64,000 nt of DNA from Rhodoglobus sp. (GTDB lineage: Bacteria; Actinomycetota; Actinomycetes; Actinomycetales; Microbacteriaceae), in assembly GCA_046155245.1 (NCBI GenBank), contig JBJXDR010000113.1, forward strand, positions 4,878 to 68,877, in the 5' to 3' direction. The notes below the pieces were generated by a model. It worked only from the letters and a program-made list of their open reading frames with translations, was not told the origin of the DNA and searched no databases. Shown piece after piece: positions 9,198-26,168 of the stretch. A program made the position numbers and the translations under genes. Position 1 is the first letter of the stretch; each line of letters opens with the position of its first letter.

Positions 9198-9557
9198 CTA
9201 GATCGGCCAGTCTTTGTGCAGCTCCGAGCCGATACCAAGGGAACTCAGGTCCGCGGTGACGGCATGCCACAAGTCACTGAAGATCTGGTCGGCGTCGCCC
9301 GTCCAGTCGTTTGGAATCGGGGTCGGCGAATCGACGGTGTACGAGACGACGTATCCCGGAGCCGAGGAGTCGTCCCAAGACAGCGAGACGTTGAGCCTCG
9401 CGTTCTCCAGCTTCACGTCGTCATCACCGTCGCCGAATCTGTCGGCGACGTACTCATAGTCGTATGAGAACTGGTACGAGTCCTCCTGCTTCATCGAACG
9501 CAGGTACTCGTCTTCATCCTCGAACTCTTCGCCGGTCGAGTGGTTCACGAACGACAC
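9198..9557 (-). CDS. Small, highly acidic hypothetical protein
   Basis: GTG start with GAGAGG upstream; 119 aa, about 27 Asp/Glu versus 6 Lys/Arg by hand count. Confidence 0.65.
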   Translation of the reverse strand: MSFVNHSTGEEFEDEDEYLRSMKQEDSYQFSYDYEYVADRFGDGDDDVKLENARLNVSLSWDDSSAPGYVVSYTVDSPTPIPNDWTGDADQIFSDLWHAVTADLSSLGIGSELHKDWPI

Positions 9558-9702
9558 TGGACGACCTACCTCTCGCATTCTCTGCCCAGGCGACGCTCGC
9601 CTCTCAGCACTGTCATCACAGTAGCCGGGCGCGCGGACGGTCGAGCCTGCGCACCTATCGGGTAGCAATCCTCTCTCGGCAGGAGAAGTTAGGAGCATCC
9701 CG

Positions 9703-10143
9703 ATGCGAACCAAAGAATCCCTGTGGGGCTTCTTCGCCAGCGACCCGCAGTTGTCCTTCAACGAGGACGGTGAGGCGCGGCTGTTCGCCTGGATCGGTCA
9801 GGAGCAGTTCGAGCGCAACCCGGACGGCTCGTTCACCCAAGGCGAGACGAAGTTCTACCCGTTCAAGATGTTTCGGCGCAGCGCGGAGCACGCCTACGAG
9901 AAGTTCGCGCGCGGCGAAAACTTCGTCGCCAGCGGCCACGTCCAGATGTTCAGCTACGAGAAGAACGGCGAGACGGTCAGCGGCGAGGAGTTCATCGCCA
10001 CGCACATCGGCCCCGACGCCGCCCGCACGAGCTACGCCGTCGACCGTGGCCGCTCGCGGTCGCAGCAGGTCGAGAGCACGACCATCGAAGCGCCCGACCC
10101 GACCCTCCCGCAGCAGCCGTCGCCCCGTCCGATGACGCTGTGA
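9703..10143 (+). CDS. ssb: Single-stranded DNA-binding protein (ICE type)
   Basis: GFFASDPQLSF...GEARLF OB-fold-like start typical of actinobacterial ICE SSBs; AGGAG RBS. Confidence 0.75.
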   Translation: MRTKESLWGFFASDPQLSFNEDGEARLFAWIGQEQFERNPDGSFTQGETKFYPFKMFRRSAEHAYEKFARGENFVASGHVQMFSYEKNGETVSGEEFIATHIGPDAARTSYAVDRGRSRSQQVESTTIEAPDPTLPQQPSPRPMTL

Positions 10144-10152
10144 GGCCGCGTC

Positions 10153-10767
10153 ATGACCACCGAGACGACGCTGTTCCCGCCAGACGATCCCGACTTCGAC
10201 GTGCCCCCGCCCGAAGAGCCGGAGCCGGAGCCGGTGACCCCTTCGCCGAGGCCGGCCAAGGAGGCGGACCCCGAGACGGAGGACACGCCCGAGCCGCCGC
10301 GCCCGGTGAACTGGAACATCCTGACCGCGGCCGAGGCGCAGGTGGAGTGGCTGGAGCTGAACGCCTTCGTGAACTGGCTGCGCCACGAGTTCGGGCTGAG
10401 CGTGAACGTCGTGCCACCGTATTGGCACCGGCACCCGGAGCTGGTGTGGCCGCTGTCGGCGCTGCGCCAGCACTACCTGAATGCCTACGACAAGAAGCAG
10501 CACGGCTCGGCACCGTTCGGCTGGTGGCGAGATTTCTGGGCCTTCATGCCGCAGCTTCGGGACGCGGTGACCGCGTGCGGCACGAAGCTCAACACGGATC
10601 GCCCGACGCGGCAGGCGGTGTGGCCGGGCGAGGACGAGCACCCCGCTCCCGTGGAGACGGTGATCCCCAACCGGGACGCCGACTTCACGCAGTTCGTCAA
10701 GGAGGACGTGGCGCGCAGGCAGGCGATCGAGGACGAGTTCTACGCCCACCTCGCGGCGGAGCAGTAG
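10153..10767 (+). CDS. DUF4913-like hypothetical protein
   Basis: WLELNAFVNWL...PPYWHRHPELVWPLSAL Trp-rich motif. Confidence 0.6.
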   Translation: MTTETTLFPPDDPDFDVPPPEEPEPEPVTPSPRPAKEADPETEDTPEPPRPVNWNILTAAEAQVEWLELNAFVNWLRHEFGLSVNVVPPYWHRHPELVWPLSALRQHYLNAYDKKQHGSAPFGWWRDFWAFMPQLRDAVTACGTKLNTDRPTRQAVWPGEDEHPAPVETVIPNRDADFTQFVKEDVARRQAIEDEFYAHLAAEQ

Positions 10768-10787
10768 GGCGCGGGCGGTGACGGCGA

Positions 10788-13700
10788 ATGGCGCGGCAGC
10801 GATCCCGGAAGCCCTGGCCGGGGCAACTGGAGTTCGATCTGTGGGGGCTCGACGAGCCTGCGGCCGACGCCGCGCTCACCACCGCTCTGGAGGCTGGGGC
10901 AGGTGATGAACAAGTACGGGCAGATGGCGCTGTCGCATTGGCAGGCGACGGCCCTGAGCCGGGTGGCGGAACTGAACGATCCCGCGGCGTTCTTCGAGGC
11001 GATGGGCCTGGAGATGCAGGCGCAGGTGACGAACCTCGCGTCAATGCTGGCGGGGGGCGACCGGCAGGGGGAGACTTTCTTGCAGAAGGTCGCCCGGCTG
11101 ACAGCGGCCCGGAGGCAGGCGGAGGAGGTCGTGATGTCGCAACTGGCGTGGATCACCGACCCGAGCCTGCCGCTGGATCAGGCGCGGGAGGAATGGGAGC
11201 AGACCCGACCCTCCGACGAGAACCTGATCCTCTGGGCGGAGCGGATGCAGGACTGCCCGGATTCGATGCCCTCCTCCGTGGAGCTGGAGGAACTGGCGAA
11301 GAAGTGGGCGCTCAGCGTCGAGTTCCTGCTGGAGCTCGTGGCGACGGAGCCCCCGCGGGAGTACATGCGGGCGAATCAGGCGGCGCTCGCCGAGGCGGCG
11401 ACGATCCGCTTCTTCCGCGAGCTGCGGTAGCACCCCGGTTCGTTCCCGCCTCCCAGGACGACCTCGGGCCGTCGGGCGCAAAGGCCCGCTATCGGGCGAA
11501 CGTGGAGGCCATCCAGCTCATCCACGATCTGAACTCCACGGGTCGCCCCGCGTCCCGGGACGGACAACGGGTGCTCGCCCGCTGGTCGAGCTGGGGCGCG
11601 ATCCCCGAGGTGTTCGATGACCTGAAACCCGAGTGGGACGCCGAGCGCGCCGAGCTGCGCGAGTTGCTGGGCGATGACGAGTGGGAGGCTGCGGAGCGGA
11701 CGACCATCAGCGCGCACTACACCGACCCGATGATCGCCCGGCAGGTGTGGCGGCTGCTGGACGGGCTGGGGTTCCGCGGCGGTGCGGTCCTCGAGCCCGG
11801 CTCCGGGTCGGGTACGTTCATCGGCCTCGCGCCTGAGTCGGCCCAGATGACCGGGGTGGAACTCGACCCGCTGACAGCGGCGATCTGCGCCGAGCTGTAT
11901 CCGCACGCGACCGTCCGTGCCGAGTCCTTCGCCGACACGCGACTGCCCGAAGGACACTTCGACGCTGCCATCGGCAACGTGCCGTTCAGCAGCGTCACCC
12001 TGCACGATCCGCTGCACAACGCGACCCGGCAGTCGATGCACAACCACTTCATCATCAAGTCGCTACGCCTGACCCGGCCGGGCGGCCTCGTCGCGCTGCT
12101 GACCTCGCACTACACGATGGACGCGCAGAACCCCGGGGCGCGGCGGGAGATGAACGAGCTGGCTGACCTCGTGGGCGCGATCCGCCTGCCCACCGGGGCG
12201 CACCGCCGCGCCGCTGGGACGGAGGTCGTGACCGACCTGCTCGTGTTCCGGCGCCGGCTGCCCGGCGAGCAGATGCGCGACGACGCCTGGGAGACGGTTG
12301 CGCAGGTTCCCATCGACGGCGTGCCGATGCGGATCAACCGCTACTTCGATGAGCACCCGGAGCAGATGCTCGGGGAGGTCGGCGTCGGGCACGGGATGTA
12401 CGACGCGAGCACGCTCACCATCACGACCGATCTGACCGACCTCGAGGCGGAACTCGCGGTCGCCGTCGACCAGCTCGTGTTCTCCGCGCGCCGGGCCGGT
12501 CTGACGATCACGGAGCGCACCGCCGAGCAGCAGGCGCGCCGCGCGGCGTTCACCCCGTCGGCGCCGGAGCTGTGGGACGGCAGCATCGTCGCGGGCGAAA
12601 GCGGCGGGTTCCGCACCGTGGTCTCGGGCTCGCTGGAGCCGCTCGCGGTGCCGAAGTCCGCCGAGCGCGAGCTGCGGGCCCTGCTGCGCCTGCGCGACGG
12701 GGCATCCCGCCTGCTGACCGCGGAGGCAGCGAGCGTGGACGACACGCCTGACATCGTGCTCACCCGCACGACGCTACGTCGCGACTACCTGAAGTACGTC
12801 GGCACCTACGGGGCGCTGAACCGCTACACGCTGCGCCCCACCGGGCGGACGAACGAGGATGGCGAGGAGACCTTCGCCCGCATCGTGCCGACCGCGATCC
12901 GCCTGCTGCGCTCCGATCCGTTCGGTCCCCTGGTGCTCGCACTCGAACAGTTCGATGACGAGGATCAGTCCGCATCGCCCGCTGCAATCATGAGCCACCG
13001 CGTGGTGGTGCCGCGAGCCGAAGTACAAGGCGTAGACAGCCCCGCCGATGCCATCGCCGTCAGCCTCGACCGAACCGGCGGGATCGACCTCCCCCTCATC
13101 GCCGACCTGCTCGGCATGAGCGACCACGACGCCCGCGAGGCGCTGGGAAACCTCGTGTTCGCCGACCCGACGACCGACCAGCTCATCCACGCCCCCGAGT
13201 ACCTATCCGGCGATGTGCGGGTCAAGCTCGAAGCCGCCCGCCTGCGCGCGGAGCAAGACCCGGAGTTCCAGCTCAACGTGGACGCGCTGGCCGAGGCACT
13301 GCCCGCGCCACTCGGCATCCAGGACATCCACGCGAAGCTCGGTGCGGTATGGATCAGCGCCGACGTGCACGAACGGTTCCTGCGGAGCATCCTGCGCGCC
13401 GAAGACGTGCGCGTCGAGAACCCGCTGCCGGGCATGTGGGAGATCCGCGGCGGACGGCAGGGCCTGCCCTCCACCTCGGAGTGGGGCACACCGCGCCGCC
13501 CCGCGCCGGACATCGCCCAGGCCGTCATGGAGCAGCGGACGATGCTCGTCTACGACGAGGAGAAGGACATCGACGGCAAGGTGCGCCGCGTGCTCAACCC
13601 CGTCGAAACCGCCGCCGCGCAGGAGAAGGCCGACGCCCTCCAGGAACGGTTCAGCGATTGGGTGTGGGAAGACCCGGCTCGCGCACAGGCGCTCGTAGAC

Positions 13701-16439
13701 GAGTACAACCGGCGCTTCAACTCCATCGTGCTCCGCGACTACACCGACGCGGGGGCGTACCTGTCGCTGCCCGGCCTGGCGTCGAACTTCGAGCCGCGCA
13801 CGCACCAGCGCGCCGCCGTCGCGCGCATGGTGTCCGAGCCCGCCGCGGGCCTGTTCCACGAGGTCGGCGCGGGCAAGACCGCGGAAATGATCATGGGCGC
13901 GATGGAGATGCGCCGGATGGGGCTCATCAGCAAGCCCGTCGTGGTCGTGCCGAACCACATGCTGGAGCAGTTCGGACGCGAGTGGCTCCAGATCTACCCG
14001 CGCGCCCGCGTGCTCGCCGCATCCAGCCTCGACCTCACGGCAGACAAGCGGCGGCTGTTCGTCGCCCGCGCTGCCGCGAACGAGTGGGATGCGATCATCG
14101 TCACGCAGGGTGCGTTCGCCAAGGTCCCCCTGCGCGCATCGACCCAAGAGCAATACATCCGCGGGCAAGTGGAGGACGTGCGGCGAGTGCTGGGCGAGGC
14201 GACCGGCGAGCAGCGGATGAGCGTCAAGCGCATTCAGCGCAAGCTCCTGGCGATGGAGAACAAGCTCAAGGAGCGCACCGATACCGACCGCGACCGCGGC
14301 GTCTGCTTCGAGGACACCGGCATCGACTACGTCATCGTCGACGAGATGCACATGTACAAGAACCTCGCCACGGAGTCGAACATCCGCGATGCCGCCATCG
14401 AGGGCTCGGATCGCGCGAGCGACCTGCACATGAAGCTCGAATACCTCCGCTCGGCGGGGCGCGAGCGGGTCGTGACCGCGGCGACCGCGACACCCATCTC
14501 GAACTCGATCACCGAGACCTACGTCATGCAGCGATACCTGCGGCCCGACGTGCTGGAGTCGGCGGGGGTCGGCGCGTTCGATGCGTGGGCGGCGACGTTC
14601 GGCGAGCTGGTCACGCAGATGGAGATCTCGCCGACGGGCAGCACGTTCCGCATGAAGACCCGCTTCGCCCGATTCCAGAACGGGCAGGAGCTGCTGCGAA
14701 TGTGGTCGGTGTTCGCCGACGTTAAGACCGCCGACGACCTCGACCTGCCCGTGCCCGCGCTCGTGCAGCGCGACGACGGCAGCCGCGCGCCCTCCACCGT
14801 GCCGGTGCAGCCGACCGTCGAACTGGAGCAGTACGTCGCTTCCCTCGCCGAGCGCGCCGAGAAGGTCGCCACCCGCCAGGTACGGCCCGACGAGGACAAC
14901 ATGCTCCTGATCGCCACCGACGGACGCAAGGCCGCGCTCGACATCCGCATGGTCATCCCCCACGACCCGTCCGGCCCGAGCAAGGTCGACGTCGCCGCCG
15001 ACGCGATCCACCGCATCTGGGAGCGCACCCGCGACAACGAATACCTCGACACGCTGACCGGGCAGCCCTCCACGGTGCGCGGGTCGCTCCAGCTCGTGTT
15101 CTCCGATATCGGCACCCCGAACCAGGACAGGTGGAACGCCTACGACGAGCTGCGGCAGCAGCTCGTGCAGCGCGGCGTCCCCGCCGAGCAGGTCAGGTAC
15201 ATGCATCAGGCGAAGACCGACGTGGAGAAGGCCCGCCTATTCGCCGCGGCCCGCGCCGGCCACGTCGCCGTGCTCCTCGGATCGACGGAGAAGATGGGCG
15301 TCGGCACCAACGTCCAGGCCCGCGCCATCGCACTGCACCACCTGGACTGCCCGTGGCGGCCCTCCGACATCGCCCAGCGCGACGGGCGCATCCTGCGGCA
15401 GGGCAACCAGAACGAGGAAGTGGCGATCGTCCGCTACGTCACCGAGCGATCCTTCGACTCCTACATGTGGCAGACCGTCGAGCGGAAAGCCGCGTCGTTC
15501 GCGCAGCTCCTGCGCGGCAAGATCAACGCCCGCGAGATCGAGGAGATCGACACCTCCGCACTGTCCGCAGCCGAGGCCAAGGCAATCGCCTCCGGCAACC
15601 CGCTCCTGCTGGAGCACTCCGTCATCCTCAACGAGGTGAACCGGCTGCGACGCCTCCAGCGCGCGCACGAACGCAACGAGGACATGCTCGTCCACACCGG
15701 CAATCGCGCCCGGTCAGCCGCCGAGCGCGCCGCCGCGGACATTCGCGGGCTGGAAGCCGCAGCCCCACGGATGATCGACACGAGCGGCGACAGGTTCCGC
15801 ATCACGCTCGGCACGCGCGACTACGACTCCCGCTCCGAAGCCGCGCACGCCCTCGCCGCGTGGATGGGCGACTCCGGGCTGAAGTGGCAGCCGCGGTACG
15901 GGCACAAGGATTTCGGGATCATCGGCCGCATCTCCGGCTTCGACGTCCACGTCGAGGCCCGCTCCGGGCTCGCCGCACTCGATGTGACCGTCTCCCTGCC
16001 CGAGGTGCCCCGCTCGGGCTTCACCATGCCGAAGGAGTCGTTCCTGGACGCCGGGCTCGGGCTCGTGCAGCGCATCGAGAACCGTGTCAGCGGCATCCCC
16101 TCCCTCCTCGACCAGGCCCGCGAAGACCTGAGAGAAGCCGAGCAGACCGTCGCCGACACCCAGCAGCGCCTGGGCCAACCGTTCCGCCACGCTCAGGCCC
16201 TCGCCGACGCCGAGGAAGACCTCGCTCGCGTCGAGTCCCAGCTCGCCGCGATGCACGACGAACCCGCACCCGAGCCCGCCGCGCCAGAGTCTGAGCGCGT
16301 CGAGCTGACCATCGAAGCAGTGCGCTCCTACGAGCCGAACCTGGGATCACGAGAGGGCACGGACGTTCCCGCTGCGGGAGACTGGAACAGTACCGCTGCC
16401 CACAGCCCCGAGAGGGAACCGCCGGGACTGCGACTGTGA
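10788..16439 (+). CDS. DarB-like giant N6-adenine methyltransferase / SNF2-type SF2 helicase fusion
   Basis: MTase motif I VLEPGSGSG and motif IV GNVPF; helicase HEVGAGKT, IVDEMH, TATPISNS, KMGVGTNVQ, QRDGRILRQGN. Confidence 0.9.
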   Translation: MARQRSRKPWPGQLEFDLWGLDEPAADAALTTALEAGAGDEQVRADGAVALAGDGPEPGGGTERSRGVLRGDGPGDAGAGDEPRVNAGGGRPAGGDFLAEGRPADSGPEAGGGGRDVATGVDHRPEPAAGSGAGGMGADPTLRREPDPLGGADAGLPGFDALLRGAGGTGEEVGAQRRVPAGARGDGAPAGVHAGESGGARRGGDDPLLPRAAVAPRFVPASQDDLGPSGAKARYRANVEAIQLIHDLNSTGRPASRDGQRVLARWSSWGAIPEVFDDLKPEWDAERAELRELLGDDEWEAAERTTISAHYTDPMIARQVWRLLDGLGFRGGAVLEPGSGSGTFIGLAPESAQMTGVELDPLTAAICAELYPHATVRAESFADTRLPEGHFDAAIGNVPFSSVTLHDPLHNATRQSMHNHFIIKSLRLTRPGGLVALLTSHYTMDAQNPGARREMNELADLVGAIRLPTGAHRRAAGTEVVTDLLVFRRRLPGEQMRDDAWETVAQVPIDGVPMRINRYFDEHPEQMLGEVGVGHGMYDASTLTITTDLTDLEAELAVAVDQLVFSARRAGLTITERTAEQQARRAAFTPSAPELWDGSIVAGESGGFRTVVSGSLEPLAVPKSAERELRALLRLRDGASRLLTAEAASVDDTPDIVLTRTTLRRDYLKYVGTYGALNRYTLRPTGRTNEDGEETFARIVPTAIRLLRSDPFGPLVLALEQFDDEDQSASPAAIMSHRVVVPRAEVQGVDSPADAIAVSLDRTGGIDLPLIADLLGMSDHDAREALGNLVFADPTTDQLIHAPEYLSGDVRVKLEAARLRAEQDPEFQLNVDALAEALPAPLGIQDIHAKLGAVWISADVHERFLRSILRAEDVRVENPLPGMWEIRGGRQGLPSTSEWGTPRRPAPDIAQAVMEQRTMLVYDEEKDIDGKVRRVLNPVETAAAQEKADALQERFSDWVWEDPARAQALVDEYNRRFNSIVLRDYTDAGAYLSLPGLASNFEPRTHQRAAVARMVSEPAAGLFHEVGAGKTAEMIMGAMEMRRMGLISKPVVVVPNHMLEQFGREWLQIYPRARVLAASSLDLTADKRRLFVARAAANEWDAIIVTQGAFAKVPLRASTQEQYIRGQVEDVRRVLGEATGEQRMSVKRIQRKLLAMENKLKERTDTDRDRGVCFEDTGIDYVIVDEMHMYKNLATESNIRDAAIEGSDRASDLHMKLEYLRSAGRERVVTAATATPISNSITETYVMQRYLRPDVLESAGVGAFDAWAATFGELVTQMEISPTGSTFRMKTRFARFQNGQELLRMWSVFADVKTADDLDLPVPALVQRDDGSRAPSTVPVQPTVELEQYVASLAERAEKVATRQVRPDEDNMLLIATDGRKAALDIRMVIPHDPSGPSKVDVAADAIHRIWERTRDNEYLDTLTGQPSTVRGSLQLVFSDIGTPNQDRWNAYDELRQQLVQRGVPAEQVRYMHQAKTDVEKARLFAAARAGHVAVLLGSTEKMGVGTNVQARAIALHHLDCPWRPSDIAQRDGRILRQGNQNEEVAIVRYVTERSFDSYMWQTVERKAASFAQLLRGKINAREIEEIDTSALSAAEAKAIASGNPLLLEHSVILNEVNRLRRLQRAHERNEDMLVHTGNRARSAAERAAADIRGLEAAAPRMIDTSGDRFRITLGTRDYDSRSEAAHALAAWMGDSGLKWQPRYGHKDFGIIGRISGFDVHVEARSGLAALDVTVSLPEVPRSGFTMPKESFLDAGLGLVQRIENRVSGIPSLLDQAREDLREAEQTVADTQQRLGQPFRHAQALADAEEDLARVESQLAAMHDEPAPEPAAPESERVELTIEAVRSYEPNLGSREGTDVPAAGDWNSTAAHSPEREPPGLRL
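10906..11430 (+). CDS. TnpV-like protein nested out of frame within the helicase gene
   Basis: MNKYGQMA...RLTAARRQAEEVV resembles TnpV; strong GC3 bias in this frame; GCAGGTG upstream. Confidence 0.7.
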   Translation: MNKYGQMALSHWQATALSRVAELNDPAAFFEAMGLEMQAQVTNLASMLAGGDRQGETFLQKVARLTAARRQAEEVVMSQLAWITDPSLPLDQAREEWEQTRPSDENLILWAERMQDCPDSMPSSVELEELAKKWALSVEFLLELVATEPPREYMRANQAALAEAATIRFFRELR

Positions 16440-16521
16440 AACGCTTAGTGCAGGTTCTCGTTCTGGCTTGTAGACTAGACAACCGCAGGTTCTCGTATCC
16501 CGTTGCTGAAAGGAGTGTGTG

Positions 16522-17226
16522 ATGTCGATCTTGCTCGCGCCCCGCCGAAACCGCCAGGGCGCTGCCGCAGCCCGGCGCGCCGTGCTCGCGTCGCGGGGGC
16601 GCTTCTGGGAGCCGGGCGATTTCTCGCTCACTCCGTCGACCGCGCATCATCTGCTCGGCGAGCTGGAGGCTCGCGGCGAGCTGCGGCGCGTGCGACGCGG
16701 CCTGTACTGGCGCGGCACGAAGACGCCGCTGGGCATGGCCCCGCCCCCGACCGAGCGACTGATCGATGCGCTCGCCCCCGGCCCCGGCGTCGGTCCTGCG
16801 GGCCTGTCCGCGGCGAACCTGCTGCGCCTGTCGACGCAGATCCCGCGCCGCGCACTGGTGGCCGTTCCCGAGCGGGCTCCGTCGGATGCTGGGCCGGTCT
16901 CGTTCGTGTCCCGCGCGACGCGCACCGGACGGGCGAAGGCTGGGCTGAACGCCACCGAGGTCGCCGCGCTCGAAGTCCTCGACGACTGGAACGCCGTGCT
17001 GGAGGTCACCCCGGACAAGGCCGCAAGGCGGCTGACCGACCTGCTGCGCAGCGGCGGCCTCCGCGCCGAGCGGCTCACCCAGGCTGCGGCCACCGAGCCG
17101 GGCCGCACTCGTGCGCGCCTCGCCGCGCTGCTCGCTGCGGCCGGGCGGGACGACCTCGCGGCACGGATTACGTCACCGGACCCCCGCACGCGCCAAGCGG
17201 CGCTCGCCACCTTGGCAGCGGCATGA
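16522..17226 (+). CDS. Type IV TA antitoxin (AbiEi/DUF6088-like wHTH)
   Basis: L.RGELRRVRRGLYW motif; AGGAG RBS; ATGA coupling to nucleotidyltransferase. Confidence 0.8.
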   Translation: MSILLAPRRNRQGAAAARRAVLASRGRFWEPGDFSLTPSTAHHLLGELEARGELRRVRRGLYWRGTKTPLGMAPPPTERLIDALAPGPGVGPAGLSAANLLRLSTQIPRRALVAVPERAPSDAGPVSFVSRATRTGRAKAGLNATEVAALEVLDDWNAVLEVTPDKAARRLTDLLRSGGLRAERLTQAAATEPGRTRARLAALLAAAGRDDLAARITSPDPRTRQAALATLAAA

Positions 17227-18212
17227 CCGATTCGACGCTGTGGCGGGACGACGATCCCGAGGTGCTCCGCGGCACGTTCCTCGCCGCCGCGGAACGCCTC
17301 GGCGTGCAGCCGCTCGCAGTCGAGAAGGACTACTGGGTCTGCGAGGCGCTGCGCGCGATGACGACCGCCCATCCGGGCGAGGTTGTCTTCAAGGGCGGCA
17401 CGAGCCTGGAGAAGCTGCGGATCATCCGGCGCTTCTCCGAAGACCTCGACCTGCTCGTCATCGGCCAGTACCCGTCGAAGAACGCCGAGCAGCGCGCGCT
17501 GCGAACCCTGCTCACCACCGCGGCGGAGGCGACCGGCGCGGAACCGACCGGGGTGACAGCGGGCGGCAGCTCCGGCTCGTTCCACCGATCCGGTTACCTC
17601 AGCCCGCCGCTGGAGCACCGCGGCGAGCCCGGCGTGATTGCCGACCCCGCGGCGATCCTCGTGGAACTCGGCCAGTCCGGTGGGCCGAACCCGCACGCCC
17701 CGCACCCGGTCACCTCGCTCCTGGCACGCGAGCTGGCCGACTCGGGCTTCGACACGAGCGCGTGGGATGACCTGGCCTCCTTCGACGTGCCGATCCTGCA
17801 TCCGGGACGCACGCTGCTGGAGAAGCTGCTGCGAGTGAACAACTTCGCCGCCGACCCCGAAGCCGCAGCCTCACCGCACGGCTGGCCGCGCATCGGCCGA
17901 CAGCTCTACGACATCTCCGCACTGCTCCGCGATCCCTCCGTGCGCGAGTTGCTGGCAGACAAGTCACTCGTCGCCGACATCCTCACCAGCGCCCGCGAGG
18001 TCTCCGCGGCGTTCGGCAAGCCCGACCTTCCCACGCCCGCCGGCGGCTTCGCCGCATCACCGGCATTCGACGCGGCATCCCCTTTCGCAGACCGCCTCCG
18101 AGCCGAGCACGACGCAGCCATGCGCGACCTCTACTACGGCACCGACGCACCGCCGAGCTTCGGCGACATACTGGCTCAGGTTCGGGCAGACGCGGCGCTC
18201 CTCGAACCCTGA
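17223..18212 (+). CDS. Nucleotidyltransferase toxin, AbiEii/AbiGii family
   Basis: VEKDYW, VFKGGTSL, RFSEDLD, RTLLEKL, RQLYD motifs. Confidence 0.92.
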   Translation: MTDSTLWRDDDPEVLRGTFLAAAERLGVQPLAVEKDYWVCEALRAMTTAHPGEVVFKGGTSLEKLRIIRRFSEDLDLLVIGQYPSKNAEQRALRTLLTTAAEATGAEPTGVTAGGSSGSFHRSGYLSPPLEHRGEPGVIADPAAILVELGQSGGPNPHAPHPVTSLLARELADSGFDTSAWDDLASFDVPILHPGRTLLEKLLRVNNFAADPEAAASPHGWPRIGRQLYDISALLRDPSVRELLADKSLVADILTSAREVSAAFGKPDLPTPAGGFAASPAFDAASPFADRLRAEHDAAMRDLYYGTDAPPSFGDILAQVRADAALLEP

Positions 18213-18233
18213 GCCAGTTGCCCTCCGTGGTGT

Positions 18234-19556
18234 TCATGCGTCGATGCCCGCGAACGCCTCGTCGAGCGCGTCAGCGGCGACCTCGACGATGAGGTCGGGA
18301 CGCTTCGCGTAGTGCCCTTCCGTGATGTCGGTACTGCTGTGCCCGAGCAGGTCGCGTGCGACCTCGACGCCAGCCGTGTCCGATACCGCCGCAGCGACCG
18401 CCTTGCGGAGGCTGCGGAAGGTGAGATGCTCGGCGTCGACCCCAATAGCCAGCAGTTCCGGCTCGAACTCGCGGCGGAACATCCTGAGCAACTCGCCGAC
18501 CGCGCTGGGGTCGCGCGGACGGCCGCGCTCGGTCGTGAACAGTACGTCGTCTGGATTCCGTTCGGGGTCGGGAACGTGGCTCGCCACGAGTTCGCTCAGT
18601 ACCTTCGCCGCGAACTTCGGAACGCGAACCCAACGCTTCTGCCGCTCCGCTTTGGGCGAGTCCTGGCGAAACAGGCCGCGGGACTTGGTGCGAACCATCG
18701 TCCCGCCGACCCAGACGAGCGCCTCCATCGTGAGGCTTCCATCCGATTGTTCCACCGCCTCGAACCGCACGTCCTGGAGCCGGATCGCAATCGGTTCTGC
18801 GGTCCTCTCGGAGGTGCCGAGCGTGATGAGGATGTAGTCGGCGAGCAGCTTGTAGTTGGGCCGTCGGCCCACCGGATACCGTTTCCGGTGCCGCTCGGGC
18901 CACACCTCGCGGATGAGGTGGAGGATGTACTTGACCTGCACCGCGTCGAGTTCGAAGTACACCGTGTCCGGCTCGTCCGCTCGTCTGGTCGCACGGATCG
19001 GGTTCGCCACGACGACCGCTCCGTACCGTGTGTTCTGGATCGACCCGGCAGCCGAGAAATGCCCCTGCTGGATCGCCCAGTCGAACATGAGCGACATCAC
19101 GTTCCGAACCTTGTTCGCGGTCGTCACCGACTTCTCCCGTGCGATGTCCATAAGCAACCCATCAGCACGGTCGGCGGTGATGTCAGCGATGGCGATGGCC
19201 CCGGCGCGCGGGATGACATGCGCTCGGACCACCGAGGCGTAGCCATCGACGGTCTGCTCGCGGCGCTGGCGCAGCACCCGCGGATCGTCGTCGTGATACG
19301 CCGTCTGAAGCCACGTCGTCGCCAGCTCGGCGACGGTCATGAGCTGTGTTCGTCGCGCCAGGACTCGACCGACTGCGGCATCGGCCGCTTCCTGCAACGC
19401 GGCCAGCGCCTCGGCTTCGGTCGCTCCGCTACCGCTCGGACGACGCTCGTGCCCGTTGCCGTCGTAGACCCGTCCTCGCGCGATGACGAGACCGCTCGGC
19501 TCGACGGTGTAGGTCACCTTGCCGAGTTCGCCGAGCGCACGCTTCGGCCGCGCCAT
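18234..19556 (-). CDS. Tyrosine recombinase / integrase
   Basis: R..E (ERTAE), FRSLRK, LLGHSS...HY catalytic set. Confidence 0.92.
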   Translation of the reverse strand: MARPKRALGELGKVTYTVEPSGLVIARGRVYDGNGHERRPSGSGATEAEALAALQEAADAAVGRVLARRTQLMTVAELATTWLQTAYHDDDPRVLRQRREQTVDGYASVVRAHVIPRAGAIAIADITADRADGLLMDIAREKSVTTANKVRNVMSLMFDWAIQQGHFSAAGSIQNTRYGAVVVANPIRATRRADEPDTVYFELDAVQVKYILHLIREVWPERHRKRYPVGRRPNYKLLADYILITLGTSERTAEPIAIRLQDVRFEAVEQSDGSLTMEALVWVGGTMVRTKSRGLFRQDSPKAERQKRWVRVPKFAAKVLSELVASHVPDPERNPDDVLFTTERGRPRDPSAVGELLRMFRREFEPELLAIGVDAEHLTFRSLRKAVAAAVSDTAGVEVARDLLGHSSTDITEGHYAKRPDLIVEVAADALDEAFAGIDA

Positions 19557-19780
19557 CAGTCGCGCGCCCTGTCCGTCGGGGCCACGATCCGCCCCGCGAT
19601 GAACGCCTCGACATCCTCATCGCGGTAGCGGACGTTGTGCGTCGAGAGTGCGACGAACGGCAACCCGAGACCTCGGCTGCGCGCGCGCTCTGTCCGCCAG
19701 TCAGCGAGCGTCCTGATCGGGATGCCCGTGTACTCGACAAGCTCCTGCGGAGTCCACAGGCGGGGGCGGTCGTCGCTCAT
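19556..19780 (-). CDS. Excisionase-like HTH protein
   Basis: LWTPQELVEYTGIPIRTLADWR...VRYRDEDV MerR/AlpA-type HTH; TGATG overlap with integrase start. Confidence 0.85.
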   Translation of the reverse strand: MSDDRPRLWTPQELVEYTGIPIRTLADWRTERARSRGLGLPFVALSTHNVRYRDEDVEAFIAGRIVAPTDRARD

Positions 19781-19967
19781 ACCAATGAGGTAGGCGGCAC
19801 CACCCGTCGACCTCCAGCGAACCCCGTAGGACGGCCAAGAATCGAGTAAACGGACGGGTTCTCGGACAAGCTTGGTAACGACCCTGGTCATGCTTGGCAT
19901 TGCACTTCCCTGTCTTTCTCGGGAAGTGCGGCCCCAGCGAGCGCCCTGCGGTTCTCAGATCCTCAAG

Positions 19968-19990
19968 CCGAGCTGTACTTCTCGGTGTAG
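19968..19990 (+). other. attR of the ICE: duplicated 3' end of type I glnA
   Basis: GAG CTG TAC TTC TCG GTG TAG = ELYFSV*, matching the glnA1 C-terminus pattern; CCGAG-N8-CTCGG inverted repeat. Confidence 0.75.
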
Positions 19991-20000
19991 TCGCTACACA

Positions 20001-20038
20001 GCACGAACGGCCGTCCCTTCGGGGGCGGCCGTTCGTGC
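20001..20038 (+). terminator. Strong hairpin, probably the glnA1 terminator
   Basis: GCACGAACGGCCGTCCC-TTCG-GGGGCGGCCGTTCGTGC: 17-bp stem with one G-U pair and a C(UUCG)G loop; no long U tract. Confidence 0.75.
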
Positions 20039-20062: not shown

Positions 20063-20138
20063 CATTACTTTTGCGTAATGGTCACGTTGTCCACTACGAG
20101 AAAGTAATGAACAGTGCTATCATTACGTTATTGTAATG
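20063..20138. promoter_or_regulatory. Three palindromic operators upstream of hipBA
   Basis: CA(T/C)TAC-N6-GTAATG starting at 20063, 20092 and 20121 (29-bp period). Confidence 0.8.
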
Positions 20139-20146
20139 GAGGGGCT

Positions 20147-20365
20147 ATGAAGGGGATTGCCCGAAGGCCGCAGGACTTGGGCGAGATTGTGCGAACGATC
20201 CGACTCGCACACAAGATCTCGCAGGACGACTTGGCTGCCCAACTAGGGGTCACGCAGCGATACCTCTCCGAGCTAGAACGCGGCAAGCCGAAGATACTTG
20301 ACGACCGCTACTTCACTGTGCTGAGCAGACTCGGAATCACGATCATGTACACGACAAATGACTAA
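20147..20365 (+). CDS. XRE-family HTH antitoxin (HipB-like)
   Basis: ISQDDLAAQLGVTQRYLSELERGK; GGAGG RBS; overlaps hipA start. Confidence 0.85.
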   Translation: MKGIARRPQDLGEIVRTIRLAHKISQDDLAAQLGVTQRYLSELERGKPKILDDRYFTVLSRLGITIMYTTND

Positions 20366-21668
20366 GGTCCTGCCTGCATACCTCTACGGCCGGCACATCG
20401 CTAATCTCCAACGCGGGGCGCGGGGCATAGAGGTCGACTGGTCGCCAGCCAGTTCCCGAGTTCGTGGGAAGGCCGAGATTTCTGCGAGCCTACCGACTGG
20501 AATAGCGCCAGCGGAAGCAGCGGCGGACAACTTCTTTGGGGGGCTCTTGCCGGAAGGGCCATGGCTCGACCGTCTAGCCAATGAGGTGGGTGTTCACCAT
20601 TCCGACATCTTCGGACTGCTGGACAACGTTGGGGGAGACCTTGCCGGCGCTCTAACCATCGGACACACCCGTGATCACAGGCCACCGGAGCGACTAGATC
20701 CGGCTCAGCTCCCACAGCTACTGGAGCAGGCGAGCGGGTACTTCATCGGCGGTGGCGGTTCCGCACTGCCGGGCTACCAGCGAAAGATCACCCTGACCCG
20801 GATGAACGACGAGTGGTGGTTGGGAAATGGAACGCTCCCGTCAACACATATCCTCAAGCCGTCACCCGACTTAAACTCTCGAGTCACCGATTCTGAGGCA
20901 TATCTCCTCACGTTGTCCCGCGCCCTAGGACTGACGACCTTCGATTCCTGGACGGAGAACATTGGCGGATTGAGTGTCGTTGTGATCGAGCGGTACGACC
21001 GCGAACAGTCGATGAGTGACGAGCCAGCAAAACGACTGCATCAGGAAGACGCGGCCCAGGCATTGGGCCTGCCTTGGCTATCGGACGCGAAATTCCAGCG
21101 CAACGACGCCCGCGCAAACCTCGCGGCAATCGCAAATCTACTCGATACTGAACGTACGATTTTCGACACCAGCGAACCAGAACGAATCCGTCTTCTGCGA
21201 TATGTGACCTTCAATTTCGCATCGGGCAACACAGACGCCCACGCAAAGAACTACTCGATACTCCGACCTGACGGATCCCCCGCAAGACTTGCGCCCTTGT
21301 ATGACCTCATGCCTCTCGCCGTACTGTCTGAAGGGCGTCTTGGTCTGCCGTTGTGGATCAACGGCAAACGAATGAGCAACGAAGTCACGGTCAGCGACCT
21401 CATGATGGAAGCTGGAACCTGGGGAGTGGCGTCCGCAGAGGCGGAGCTAGCAATCACCGATACGCTGCAGAGGCTCGCGGCCGCCGTGCGAGACATTCCA
21501 GCGCCGAGATCAATTGCAGCTCTCCTACCTGGCTTTGTTCGCACTCAAGCCAACGCGTTGCTCGACGGGAAGCCAGCACGCATAGAGGGTCCGGTCCCCG
21601 CGTACTTCCGGAACCGGATCGGAACGCCCGGCGGCGAAGTCGCCGCACCAACTCCCTCGCAGCCTTAG
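20358..21668 (+). CDS. hipA: HipA-family serine/threonine kinase toxin
   Basis: LLPEG, SALPGYQRK, RLHQED, GNTDAHAKN, LAPLYD motifs. Confidence 0.92.
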   Translation: MTKVLPAYLYGRHIANLQRGARGIEVDWSPASSRVRGKAEISASLPTGIAPAEAAADNFFGGLLPEGPWLDRLANEVGVHHSDIFGLLDNVGGDLAGALTIGHTRDHRPPERLDPAQLPQLLEQASGYFIGGGGSALPGYQRKITLTRMNDEWWLGNGTLPSTHILKPSPDLNSRVTDSEAYLLTLSRALGLTTFDSWTENIGGLSVVVIERYDREQSMSDEPAKRLHQEDAAQALGLPWLSDAKFQRNDARANLAAIANLLDTERTIFDTSEPERIRLLRYVTFNFASGNTDAHAKNYSILRPDGSPARLAPLYDLMPLAVLSEGRLGLPLWINGKRMSNEVTVSDLMMEAGTWGVASAEAELAITDTLQRLAAAVRDIPAPRSIAALLPGFVRTQANALLDGKPARIEGPVPAYFRNRIGTPGGEVAAPTPSQP

Positions 21669-21762
21669 GCGTCCCCAGGGACTCGGCACGGCACTGGCCA
21701 GACCCGGGCAGCGTCCTATCAGGGACGGCCGCTCGTGGGTTGTTGGGCCGCGGAGTGCTTGT

Positions 21763-24708
21763 CTATCCTGCGCTGGGCCCCCGCCGCGCCCCGTAGAAGC
21801 GCTTCTCGAAGACCTGGCGCGCGAGCCGGGTCGTGCGCAGGTAGTCCTCCTCGAAGACGCTCGCCGAGCCGGGCGGGTATTCGAGCAGGCGTGCCACGCC
21901 TTCGAGCGCTCTTCGATCGGTCGGGAGCACGTCGGAGGTCTTGGCGGTCCAGAGCGTCATCCCCGACCGGGCACGGGAGGCAAGCATCCACGCGTTGTGC
22001 AGCCGCGCGGCGTCAGCAGTCGTGACGAGTCCCGCGCGCTCGGCCGCGGCCAGTGCGCGCAACGTCGACGTGGTGCGCAGCCCCTCGACTCGCGCCCCGT
22101 GCTCGAGCTGCAGCAGCTGCACGAACCACTCGACGTCGCTGAGCGACCCGCGCCCGAGCTTGAGGTGGCGAGCGGGGTCGGCGGCCTGAGGCAGTCGCTC
22201 GGTCTCGACCCGCGCCTTGATGCGCCTGATTTCGCGGAGGTCCTGCTCCGCGATCGTCGACGGGTAGCGTACATCGTTGACGAGCTCCTCCCACGCCGCG
22301 AGCACGGCTCGGTCGCCCACCACGATGCGCGCCCGAAGCAGCGCCTGCGCCTCCCACGTCAACGACCACCGCTCGTAGTACGCGCGGTAGCTGTCGAGCG
22401 AACGCACTATCGCGCCGTTCCGACCCTCGGGGCGCAGGCCGAGGTCAAGATCGAGCGGCACCCGCAGGTCCTCGGTGAGGCGACTGATCGAGTGGACTAT
22501 CGCTTCGGCGCGCTGGTGCGCCTCGTCGTCGGATGCCCCGGCCGCTCGGTACACGTACATGACGTCGGCATCCGACCCGAACCCCAACTCGGCGCCGCCG
22601 TAGCGGCCCATCGCGATGATGCCGAACTCGAGGCCGTCGCCGTACCGGTGAGCCAACGAGAGCACTCCACTGAGGATGACCGTGGTGACATCCGACAGCG
22701 CGACGCCGAGCTCCTCGATCGACACAACGCCGAGCATCGAGCCGAGCGCCAAACGAAGTATCTCCCGCCGGCGGGCCGTGCGCAGTGCGAGAGCCGCGCC
22801 GTCTACATCGCCTTCATGCCGGGCGACTGTCGCAATCGACTCCTCGAGCAGCACCGGATACGGGCGAGGCCGCAGCTCCTCCTCGTTCTCAAGCCATGCG
22901 GCGGCTTCGGGGATGCGTTCGAAGATCGCGCCGACGAACCGTGATCCCGACAACACCTGCGTCATGCGTTGTGCTGCCGCACTCGAGTCACGGAGCATGC
23001 GCAGGAACCAGTACGCCTCACCGAGATCCTCACTGAGGCGACGGAAGGCGAGAAGCCCGTAGTCCGGGTCCGCACCCTCGGCGAACCACTGCAGCATCAC
23101 CGGCAAAAGGTTGCGCTGAATGATTGCCCGACGCGATACCCCCCCGGTCAGCGCGGCGATGTGCTTGAGGGCGCCCCGGGGGTCGCTGAACCCGATAGCC
23201 GCGAGTCGCGCCTCGGCCTGTTCGCTCGAGAGCGTGAGGCCTTCGTCAGGCAAGGCAGCGACCGCCGACAGCAGAGGGCGATAGAAGAGTCGCTCGTGAA
23301 GGCTGCGCACTGCCTGCTTGGTGCGTTGCCACTGTTGGACGAGCTCGTCGGCGGTGGTCACGATGCCGGACGCCCGCGCGAGGATGCGCAGGGCATCCGG
23401 GTCGGTCGGCATGAGGTGCGTGCGGCGTAAGCGGCTCAACTGGAGCCGGTGCTCGAGCAGGCGCAGAAACCGGTAGTCGCCGGAGAACTCGCCCGCCTCG
23501 ACCCGGCCGATGTACCCGTGCTCAGCGAGTGCCTCGAGCGCGGGCAGGGTTGCGACCTGCCGCACGCCGGGATCCGTCTGCCCGTGCACAAGCTGAAGGA
23601 GCTGGATCGTGAATTCCACGTCACGCAGACCCCCGGGGCCGAGCTTGAGTTGCACATCGAGCTCGTTGGCGGGGATGTTGGCGGTGACCCTCTCGCGCAT
23701 CCGCTGCACTGAATCGACGAAGTTCTCGCGGGAGGCGCTCGACCACACCTTCGGCGCCAGAGCGTCGACGTACTGCTGGCCGAGGTCGAGATCACCGGCG
23801 AGCGGACGCGCCTTGAGCAATGCCTGGAACTCCCAACTCTTGGCCCACCGGTCGTAGTAGGCCAAATGTGAATCGAGAGTGCGCACGAGCGCGCCGTCCT
23901 TGCCCTCCGGGCGCAGGTTCGCGTCTACCTCCCACAGGCCGGGCTCGGTCGCCAGGTCGTGGATGCCCCGCATCGTCTGCACTGCCAGCCCAGTGGCGAT
24001 CGTCACGGCCCGGTCGTGCGCAAGGGGGGACTCGTCCTCGAGGGCTCCGCCCTCCCCCACGAAGATGACGTCGACATCGGACACGTAGTTGAGTTCGCGC
24101 GCACCGGCTTTGCCCATTCCGATGATCGCAAGTCGAGTTGCGGCGACCTCGTTCGCCGGGAACTTGACGTCACGTCGCGCGACCGCGAGAGCCGCGTCCA
24201 GTGCAGCACCGGCGAGGTCGGCCAGCGCGGCGGCGACAACAGAAACCGCGGCGATCGGGTCGGCCTGCTCGAGGTCCCACGCGGTCAGTTGCACGAGGTG
24301 TCGGCGGTAGCGCACCCGAAGCGCGACCCATGCCTTGTCACCCTTGAGTCCGTCGACGGCATTCAGGAGATCCGCTCCGTACTCGGAGGCGGGAGCCGAG
24401 ATGGGCTCCGCCAGTGCGTGCAGCTCGCCCGCGTGGCGCGCGAGAAAGTCACCGAGACCCGAGGAGGCACCGAGCACACGAATGAGGCGCTGCGCGGCAT
24501 CCGGAATCTTCAGCAGCGCCGCGAGCTCTGCAGCGGCGTGCTCGTGCAGGGCGACGAGGTAGCGCAACGCCTGGTCGGGATCGGCAGCCAGCGCGAAGTG
24601 CGGTACTAGAGCAGGTGCATCCAGTGCCTCGAGGCGACGCGACGTCTCGTCCAGCTCGGCAAAACCGAGGCGGGCGAGTTCGGTCAGCGTCGTCGGTGGC
24701 CGGGACAT
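21763..24708 (-). CDS. glnE: Bifunctional glutamine synthetase adenylyltransferase/adenylyl-removing enzyme
   Basis: MGKAGARELNYVSDVD and MGRYGGAELGFGSDAD duplicated NTase motifs; LRPEG. Confidence 0.97.
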   Translation of the reverse strand: MSRPPTTLTELARLGFAELDETSRRLEALDAPALVPHFALAADPDQALRYLVALHEHAAAELAALLKIPDAAQRLIRVLGASSGLGDFLARHAGELHALAEPISAPASEYGADLLNAVDGLKGDKAWVALRVRYRRHLVQLTAWDLEQADPIAAVSVVAAALADLAGAALDAALAVARRDVKFPANEVAATRLAIIGMGKAGARELNYVSDVDVIFVGEGGALEDESPLAHDRAVTIATGLAVQTMRGIHDLATEPGLWEVDANLRPEGKDGALVRTLDSHLAYYDRWAKSWEFQALLKARPLAGDLDLGQQYVDALAPKVWSSASRENFVDSVQRMRERVTANIPANELDVQLKLGPGGLRDVEFTIQLLQLVHGQTDPGVRQVATLPALEALAEHGYIGRVEAGEFSGDYRFLRLLEHRLQLSRLRRTHLMPTDPDALRILARASGIVTTADELVQQWQRTKQAVRSLHERLFYRPLLSAVAALPDEGLTLSSEQAEARLAAIGFSDPRGALKHIAALTGGVSRRAIIQRNLLPVMLQWFAEGADPDYGLLAFRRLSEDLGEAYWFLRMLRDSSAAAQRMTQVLSGSRFVGAIFERIPEAAAWLENEEELRPRPYPVLLEESIATVARHEGDVDGAALALRTARRREILRLALGSMLGVVSIEELGVALSDVTTVILSGVLSLAHRYGDGLEFGIIAMGRYGGAELGFGSDADVMYVYRAAGASDDEAHQRAEAIVHSISRLTEDLRVPLDLDLGLRPEGRNGAIVRSLDSYRAYYERWSLTWEAQALLRARIVVGDRAVLAAWEELVNDVRYPSTIAEQDLREIRRIKARVETERLPQAADPARHLKLGRGSLSDVEWFVQLLQLEHGARVEGLRTTSTLRALAAAERAGLVTTADAARLHNAWMLASRARSGMTLWTAKTSDVLPTDRRALEGVARLLEYPPGSASVFEEDYLRTTRLARQVFEKRFYGARRGPSAG

Positions 24709-24726
24709 GGCGGGAGGGGGCACGAG

Positions 24727-26064
24727 CTAAAGGATCTCGAGGTTGCTCTCCAACTCGTACGGCGTGACCTGCGCACGGTACTGGCTCCACTCGCGGCGCT
24801 TGTTCAACAGCACGTAGTTGAAGACCTGCTCGCCGAGGGTCTCGGCGACCAGCTCGGAGTCCTCCATGAGGGAGACGGCGTGGTCGAGGCTCGCGGGCAG
24901 CTGGTTGTAGCCCAGTGCGCGCCGTTCCGCGTCGGAGAGCTCCCAGACGTTGTTCTCGGCCTCGGGCGGCAGCTCGTAGCCCTCCTCGATGCCCTTGAGT
25001 CCGGCCGCAAGCAGCAGTGAGAACGTGAGGTACGGGTTCGCCGCGGAGTCGATCGCCCGGTACTCGACGCGCGCGCTTTGCCCCTTGTTCGGCTTGTAGA
25101 GCGGCACGCGCACGAGTGCCGAGCGGTTGTTGTGTCCCCAGGTCACGAAGCTCGGCGCCTCGTCACCACCCCACAGCCGCTTATACGAGTTCACGAACTG
25201 GTTCGTCACCGCTGTGATCTCGGGCGCGTGGTGCAACAGCCCGGCGACAAACTGCTTGCCGATCTTCGAGAGCTGGTAGTGGCCGGATGCGTCGTAGAAC
25301 GCGTTCGAGTCCCCCTCGAATAGCGACAGGTGGGTGTGCATGCCCGATCCCGGATGCCCCGACATCGGCTTCGGCATGAAGGTCGCGTACACCCCCTGCT
25401 CGATTGCGACCTCCTTGATTACCGTGCGGAAGGTCATGATGTTGTCGGCGGTCGTGAGCGCGTCGGCGTAGCGCAGATCGATCTCGTTCTGCCCAGGCCC
25501 GGCTTCGTGGTGGCTGAACTCCACCGAGATGCCGAGATCCTCGAGCATCCGCACCGACCGGCGGCGGAAGTCGTGGGCCGTGCCACCGGGCACGTTATCG
25601 AAGAAGCCTGCCGCGTCGACAGGCTGCGGCTGTCCGTTCTTCAGCTCGGTCGACTTGAGCAGGTAGAACTCGATCTCGGGATGCGTGTAGAACGAGAAGC
25701 CGCGATCGGCAGCCTTGGCGAGAGCTCGCTTGAGCACGTTGCGAGGGTCGGCGATGGCGGGCTGGCCGTCGGGGGTCGTGATGTCGCAGAACATGCGAGC
25801 GGTCGGGTCCACCTCGCCGCGCCATGGGAGGATCTGGAACGTCGCCGGGTCGGGGTGGGCGAGCATGTCGGCCTCGTAGGCGCGCGTGAAGCCCTCGATG
25901 GCCGAGCCGTCGAAGCCGAGTCCCTCAGCAAATGCGCCCTCGACCTCGGCGGGAGTGATCGCAACGCTCTTGAGGGTACCCACGACATCCGTGAACCACA
26001 GCCGGATGAACTTGACCCCCCGCTCCTCGATTGTGCGAAGAACGAAGTCACGCTGCTTGTCCAT
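24727..26064 (-). CDS. glnA: Glutamine synthetase (GlnA2 type)
   Basis: MDKQRDFVLRTIEER, FDGSAIEG, HHEAGPGQNEI, GSGMHTH motifs; upstream of glnE. Confidence 0.96.
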   Translation of the reverse strand: MDKQRDFVLRTIEERGVKFIRLWFTDVVGTLKSVAITPAEVEGAFAEGLGFDGSAIEGFTRAYEADMLAHPDPATFQILPWRGEVDPTARMFCDITTPDGQPAIADPRNVLKRALAKAADRGFSFYTHPEIEFYLLKSTELKNGQPQPVDAAGFFDNVPGGTAHDFRRRSVRMLEDLGISVEFSHHEAGPGQNEIDLRYADALTTADNIMTFRTVIKEVAIEQGVYATFMPKPMSGHPGSGMHTHLSLFEGDSNAFYDASGHYQLSKIGKQFVAGLLHHAPEITAVTNQFVNSYKRLWGGDEAPSFVTWGHNNRSALVRVPLYKPNKGQSARVEYRAIDSAANPYLTFSLLLAAGLKGIEEGYELPPEAENNVWELSDAERRALGYNQLPASLDHAVSLMEDSELVAETLGEQVFNYVLLNKRREWSQYRAQVTPYELESNLEIL

Positions 26065-26168
26065 CAAGCTCCTCAGGAAGTCACGCTGTTTGACACGCCG
26101 AAGTGGGCCCCGGGCACCGCTCTTAGGCTACCGGGTCGGGCCATCGGGCACGTCACTAGACTCGGCTC

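Follow-up and report, generated by a model that had tools for sequence, protein, structure and literature searches.

Evidence that a T4SS-type ICE of Microbacteriaceae integrates into the 3′ end of glnA1

That an incoming element can enter a protein-coding gene at its 3′ end and restore the gene is well known; such targets include fda for ICESt3 and rplL, rpsI, and guaA for streptococcal ICEs. PAISt of Streptomyces turgidiscabies lies at bacA, at an 8-bp palindrome (PMC4057263), and the SPbeta-like prophages of Bacillus use a tyrosine integrase, reported to be related to the Int of ICEBs1, at glnA, where they leave a 106-bp duplication and an intact gene (bioRxiv 10.1101/2021.11.22.469490). 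The actinobacterial elements typed as carrying a tyrosine recombinase (AICEs) are found almost exclusively in tRNA genes (Ghinet et al. 2011; PMC3218068). A term search of that paper found no glutamine synthetase target, and our literature search returned no description of an ICE at glnA in Actinobacteria.

Here we analyze a stretch of 64,000 nucleotides from Rhodoglobus sp. (hereafter the window), which corresponds to positions 4878–68877 of contig C113 of a MAG. At window positions 19969–20038 lie the seven final codons of the glnA1 that the host originally had, along with its terminator, and we are confident that this segment represents the attR of a T4SS-type actinobacterial ICE of about 52 kb, inserted by its tyrosine integrase into the last codons of glnA1 (Table 1). 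The original prediction, made from the window by itself, was of an attR at a glnA1 3′ end, and it is borne out by a matching attL at the genome's only type I glnA1 and by the empty sites of two relatives, G012 and G036. The locus resembles the PAISt-type 3′-end elements in its tyrosine integrase, in the short identity in the last codons, in the replacement of the gene end, and in the intact host gene; it differs from PAISt in integrase clade and target, and the identity here is 11–13 bp around CTGTAC. The SPbeta-like prophages likewise target the glnA 3′ end and leave the gene intact after integration, but they are phages, they belong to Firmicutes, and their duplication is 106 bp rather than 13 bp. 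In contrast to the tRNA targets of the AICEs described by Ghinet et al., the present element uses the glnA1 3′ end.

Table 1. Coordinates of the features discussed (window positions unless contig C26 is given)
Feature	Position	Strand	Basis
Right-hand ~20 kb of the ICE	1–19968	.	Pfam and NCBIfam matches; backbone 91–94% identical to the G062 ICE
VirB4-like ATPase	5272–6756		VirB4-like models at 2e-16, far below curated cut-offs
TraG/T4CP coupling protein	7345–9156		T4SS-DNA_transf 5e-28, TraG-D_C
Tyrosine integrase (int), 440 aa	18234–19556	-	PF00589 and PF22022; phrog_1 5e-31
Excisionase-like HTH protein (xis), 74 aa, start at 19780	19556–19780	-	phrog_66 5e-7; weak HTH_17 match
P arm of attR, non-coding element DNA	19781–19968	.	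Near-invariant in aligned attR copies
Candidate arm-type site AGTAAACGGACGGGTTCTCGGAC in P arm	19845–19867		
Inverted repeat in P arm	19902–19929		Hairpin z = -4.2
13-bp core CGAGCTGTACTTC	19969–19981	+	Identical in attL, C26:12254–12266
Original glnA1 tail ELYFSV*, orphan	19970–19990	+	Same as intact glnA1 ends of relatives
Original glnA1 terminator hairpin, 17-bp stem	20001–20038	+	Fold; conserved after intact glnA1 in G012, G036
hipB-like HTH gene	20114–20365	+	Pfam HTH_3
hipA-like kinase toxin gene	20358–21668	+	Pfam HipA_C, Couple_hipA
Degenerate second copy of glnA1 terminator 3′ half, right edge of hipBA insert	21711–21737	+	Alignment
glnE	21763–24723	-	Pfam GlnE, GlnD_UR_UTase
glnA2	24727–26067	-	Pfam Gln-synt_C, Gln-synt_N
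TrwC relaxase	C26:14735–18280		TrwC 2e-89 and AAA_30

The element extends from C26:12267 to the end of that contig and, beyond a small gap, on to window position 19968; with ~26.6 kb on the one contig and 24.8 kb on the other, the island would measure about 52 kb. Its backbone is 88–94% identical to that of the ICE in genome G062. The T4SS-type actinobacterial ICEs (PMC3218068) have the same TrwC-type relaxase, TraG-like coupling protein, candidate VirB4-like ATPase, and SSB, as well as the same ParB-like protein, Prim-Pol, M23 peptidase, tyrosine integrase, and Xis, and this gene set has also been noted in Propionibacterium freudenreichii (PMC5644110). On C113 the order is the Prim-Pol C-terminal region, the ParB-like protein, the M23 peptidase, DUF6112, SCO6881 and SCO6880 family proteins, the VirB4-like ATPase, the T4CP, the SSB, DUF4913, a 1883-aa SNF2-methylase, AbiEii, int, and xis. 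The neighbor of the VirB4-like ATPase matches the SCO6880 family at 3e-133, and several further T4SS parts likewise score far below the cut-offs of the curated models that they match. On C26, downstream of glnA1, the element carries besides the relaxase an ArsR regulator, signal peptidase II, defence genes, and the N-terminal half of Prim-Pol. The whole is identified as an ICE by its relaxase, its type IV coupling protein, and an integrase whose attL and attR bound it at one specific site of the chromosome.

The defence genes form an island in the left half of the ICE (C26:19004–34949; L078/L079), which encodes a DpdE-like SNF2 helicase, HmaC (HEPN and DUF499), HmaB (a DUF1156 methylase), a CBASS-type cyclase, and HmaA (a helicase). 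The AbiEii-containing protein of the right half is 569 aa long (window 16503–18212).

The integrase and its small partner have the general makeup of lambda-type Int/Xis systems: a large integrase with a core-binding domain (PF22022) at its center and a catalytic domain besides, a small Xis of the HTH type, arms that measure 170–190 bp and bear repeated motifs that putatively act as arm sites, and putative core sites in imperfect inverted repeat. The present system is set apart from that type by an integrase that is only ~28% identical to actinophage integrases and has no PDB relative by sequence. The match to PF00589 (3e-7) is above the cut-off, no NCBIfam model matched, and, when distant homologues are aligned, residues R251, K302, R384, H406, and Y416 do not vary. 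The His of the HxxR motif is replaced by Arg in the clade that targets glnA1; box II (residues 381–384) here reads RSLR, a form seen also in one homologue associated with tRNA-Gly. The family phrog_66, which Xis matches, is annotated as "excisionase and transcriptional regulator."

It is unlikely, in our judgment, that the element is a fossil, integrated at glnA1 and past excision or transfer, with attR remaining as a scar. An arrangement of that remnant-like kind is found at another locus, L053, where attL lies ~3 kb from an integrase match covering only residues 63–440. The present element, by contrast, has an undamaged int and xis, an integrase with all its catalytic residues (R, K, R, H, and Y), and two conserved arms; the relaxase, the T4CP, and the VirB4-like protein are likewise all in place, the last with a match far below curated cut-offs. 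Moreover, integrases are 96–98% identical in hosts where GlnE is only 55–63% identical, and this speaks for a lineage that has spread recently. In the reading that we prefer, excision would presumably depend on Xis, and the element may be mobile at present.

The counterpart of attR was found on C26. Four Gln-synt_C matches occur in the genome, and the best of them, which is also the sole one with an ELYF tail, is the glnA1 at C26:10803–12275. It ends in ELYFGV*. An intact glnA1 with its attL had been expected to the left of the window; both exist, but on C26 rather than on the window's own contig. A duplication of the last ~21 bp of the gene had also been expected, and this did not hold: only the 13 bp of CGAGCTGTACTTC are common to the two ends, after which they diverge (GGGGTCTGA versus TCGGTGTAG), and the element replaces the last two codons and the terminator. 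It provides GGG GTC TGA at attL, which changes SV* to GV*, a Ser-to-Gly substitution of the penultimate residue, together with a hairpin of its own (16-bp stem, -42.8 kcal/mol, z = -9.5 on folding). In this way integration would have carried the gene's own final two codons, with stop and terminator, ~52 kb away, to a position beside xis and int, and GlnA1 would stay full length, with Gly for Ser and with a terminator kept behind the gene. A scripted join of the C26 left flank to the window right flank restores ...HPFEYELYFSV* and the terminator, and the joined sequence matches that of G012 at 383 of 400 positions on the left and 60 of 70 on the right; the actual C26 sequence after glnA1, on the P′ side, has no alignment to G012.

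Because the two junctions lie on separate contigs, an assembly or binning artefact has to be weighed, in which C26 (attL) and C113 (attR) come from different strains. The assembly is a MAG in 191 contigs with 2.4% contamination, and the end of C26 and the start of C113 have no sequence overlap. Against this, the bin holds a single glnA1 of the matching type, both contigs are 67% GC, and C26 ends in the N-terminal half of the Prim-Pol that C113 resumes, in frame, with the C-terminal half. The ICE of G063 is contiguous, and its homologues of the two contig ends, that of C26 and that of C113, are collinear with this arrangement, ~620 bp apart and in the same order. We consider the artefact highly improbable, and even if strains were mixed each junction alone would still show integration at glnA1. 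Taken together, the Prim-Pol halves and the collinearity suggest that C26 and C113 carry one ICE, joined across a gap of ~0.1–0.3 kb within the Prim-Pol gene.

The identity of the stranded tail rests on a DNA search of 60 relatives, with inspection of the matches. A search of the window finds GAGCTGTACTTCTCGGTGTAG, which encodes ELYFSV*, at the place given in Table 1; the same frame has a stop 47 codons upstream with no GlnA-like residues in between, so the motif is, as originally described, an orphan gene tail beside xis and int with no GlnA-like frame before it. In at least 10 genomes of the same genus an intact glnA1 ends in ...RPHPFEYELYF(S/G)V* and is followed by a terminator, and CGAGCTGTACTTCTCGGTGTAG (22 nt) is identical to the intact glnA1 end in several same-genus relatives. 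Similarity of the window to intact glnA1 3′ ends begins exactly at 19969 (CGAGCTG...). The best tail match, to G012 and G036, is 92% over 64 nt and includes non-coding bases of the terminator, whose hairpin has a CUUC loop and a folding energy of -42.1 kcal/mol (z = -7.2). In G004, of the same genus, the element side matches as well, which indicates a related element at the same site in that genome. When the 161-bp region was searched across the whole genome, no second long copy appeared; the 13-bp duplicate was found by k-mers.

That ELYFSV* is a chance match, or what remains of a deleted glnA1 paralogue, with no relation to the integrase, can be regarded as refuted: twelve-mers of the region do recur by chance genome-wide and a MetH-like gene on contig C131 also ends in YFSV*, but the homology takes in the non-coding terminator as well, and its first base is the one at which it begins in at least 36 other int loci, where the P arm is conserved up to that very base. 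The C131 sequence was also considered as an att copy, on the strength of a 17-nt match, and was rejected, the match being the end of the MetH-like gene (…ARYFSV*) plus an 18-bp tandem repeat. At C131:740–830 this gene, ending in ...HHPEARYFSV*, shares TACTTCTCGGTGTAG with the glnA1 tail and is followed by three or four tandem 18-bp units of TTGGACTTCTCGGTGTAG; the units may belong to a gene that converges on the MetH-like one and ends in repeats, read as YTEKSN on the opposite strand.

The comparison of many attachment sites bears on the position of the crossover. The layout is B-core-P′ at attL and P-core-B′ at attR. In an alignment of 28 attR copies, those of the window and of 27 other loci, conservation is near-total over the P arm and collapses just past the core. 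The P arm contains a single conserved AAACGGACGG and the P′ arm, on C26, two more; these repeats are candidate arm-type sites. Recombination would take place inside the 13 bp that encode the conserved ELYF. The right limit of the exchange is informed by six genomes in which the host codon that covers core position 12 (window 19980) is TAC: in all six, attL has the T of the element and attR the A of the host, so position 12 lies to the right of the exchange and the exchange to the left of window 19980. At core position 7 (window 19975), which is G or C, attL and attR disagree in two genomes, Microbacterium paludicola and Compostimonas, in opposite directions, which leaves the left limit ambiguous; this position may be either inside the overlap region or derived from different parental alleles. 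The core of attP, as reconstructed, reads GCCGAG-CTGTAC-TTCGG(G/C) and forms an imperfect inverted repeat centered on CTGTAC. It seems likely that the near-palindromic CTGTAC (window 19973–19978) is the overlap region and that exchange occurs within it, with GCCGAG and TTCGG(G/C) as the imperfect inverted sites that would flank it in attP. Another inverted repeat, CCGAG-N8-CTCGG, had been singled out in the original prediction and is indeed present at window 19968–19985, but it needs this host's TCG Ser codon and is therefore host specific; it is not conserved elsewhere, most attR sites having no such repeat.

The chromosome to the right of attR only partly follows the expected plan, in which glnA1 converges on glnE and glnA2. 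That convergence is seen in G012 and G036, which have no ICE and in which the glnE 3′ end lies ~125 bp beyond glnA1, and glnE and glnA2 do follow in the window; here, however, a foreign 1.7-kb hipBA insert with a hipB/hipA-like toxin–antitoxin pair (window 20114–21770) separates the stranded glnA1 terminator from glnE. Homology to relatives resumes at 21778. The two hipBA genes are low in GC3, below the 0.72 cut-off used in gene calling, and none of the relatives and none of the 48 int loci has hipBA at the corresponding position. We considered the possibility that hipBA is a CIME, added by accretion, and rejected it. At its right edge there is only the degenerate half of a terminator (21711–21737 against 20011–20037, 21 of 26 positions identical, a score reached by 3 of 1000 shuffles) and no CGAGCTGTACT core. 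No close relative of HipA was present in the genome contigs searched; its family homologues are at most 49% identical, and the nine loci fetched have neither glnA1, nor glnE, nor the tail motif in flanks of ~1.5 kb, which also speaks against the CIME reading. We therefore treat hipBA as what is probably a separate small insertion, outside the ICE and not a CIME of its integrase.

The arrangement at attR recurs widely. Integrase homologues 82–98% identical to that of the window occur at 48 loci, mostly in genera of the Microbacteriaceae, among them Microbacterium, Cryobacterium, Salinibacterium, Rhodoglobus, Homoserinimonas, Compostimonas, Leifsonia, and Ca. Lumbricidophila. A survey of their neighbors, proposed along with the original prediction, came out in its favor, with the same glnA1-tail junction in at least 36 of the 48. 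At 27 of these loci a P arm ending in ...CTCAGATCCTCAAGC runs into CGAGCTGTACT(T/A)C, after which come codons specific to the host, a stop, and a hairpin; at nine more the core of the junction differs by one or two bases. At 33 of the 48, glnE comes next. We looked for glnA1 in 15 genomes with an integrase homologue and recovered both ends in 14, with glnA1 pointing into the element. The tail is followed in 12 of the 14 by a conserved P′ arm, GG(G/C)GTCTGATTCCG..., a hairpin with a 16-bp stem, and AAACGGAC repeats; attL has a variant P′ arm at L127 and a different sequence at L126. Integrases are 86–98% identical in genomes whose GlnE is only 55–82% identical to that of the window, which indicates that the element has moved horizontally.

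The distance from glnA1 to int is 32–97 kb in the five genomes measured. The upper value belongs to M. humicola W4 (L023/G061), where ~97 kb is roughly double the usual ICE size, and the element there may be tandem or expanded by cargo. At two loci of a Homoserinimonas MAG (L036/L100; G063/G264) the sequence ~420 bp upstream of int consists of the P arm, CGAGCTGTATTAC, and then GGGGTCTGATTCCGAG..., which is P′ arm and not host tail, with glnE ~3 kb beyond; a second small element has apparently accreted there in tandem, at the att site already in use.

Beyond this group the integrases fall off sharply. A family sample of 300 genomes of other species contains eight with an integrase at least 91% identical, from several genera (three of the eight matches are partial), and a ninth with an 81%-identical integrase fragment at the same junction. 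All other matches in that sample are 31–34% identical. They come from 18 loci, of which 14 are beside a tRNA gene (tRNA-Gln in 11, and tRNA-Gly, tRNA-Asn, and tRNA-Thr in one each), and the glnA tail motif is missing from all 18. Among 400 genomes sampled at class level, no integrase match reached E <= 1e-50. The nearest other integrase clade (L104–L121) lies ~380 bp from a tRNA gene, mostly tRNA-Gln(CTG), and a lineage that targets tRNA genes and one that targets glnA1 thus coexist in the family.

The core that encodes ELY is conserved in the glnA1 tails examined, and GlnA of more distant bacteria ends similarly. These observations bring to mind a broader proposal, for and against which we see the balance as even: that the elements form an undescribed, family-wide ICE lineage of Microbacteriaceae, which switched from the tRNA targets of its relatives to the ELY-coding end of glnA1, and that the glnA tail has been used convergently, the SPbeta-like phages of Bacillus being another case. 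If this is true, and given the conserved ELY core, the int-attP module could be an integration tool of broad host range. Int-attP is in any case a candidate integration vector for Microbacteriaceae, a family with few genetic tools. Cultured carriers are at hand in M. enclense ZYFD042, M. testaceum FXH-28, M. schleiferi JCM 9175, M. paludicola JCM 14308, M. ginsengisoli DSM 18659, and Compostimonas suwonensis DSM 25625. Because the glnA1 tails of the hosts differ slightly, the many natural attL/attR pairs amount to a ready-made mutational map of the crossover. For the family itself, the analysis provides exact boundaries and the att-site anatomy of an ICE that is widespread in Microbacteriaceae and equipped with defence systems (Hma, a CBASS-type cyclase, and AbiE). 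An essential gene of nitrogen assimilation would serve these bacteria as the anchor of a mobile element and yet remain unbroken, since the element brings along a spare gene end and a terminator.
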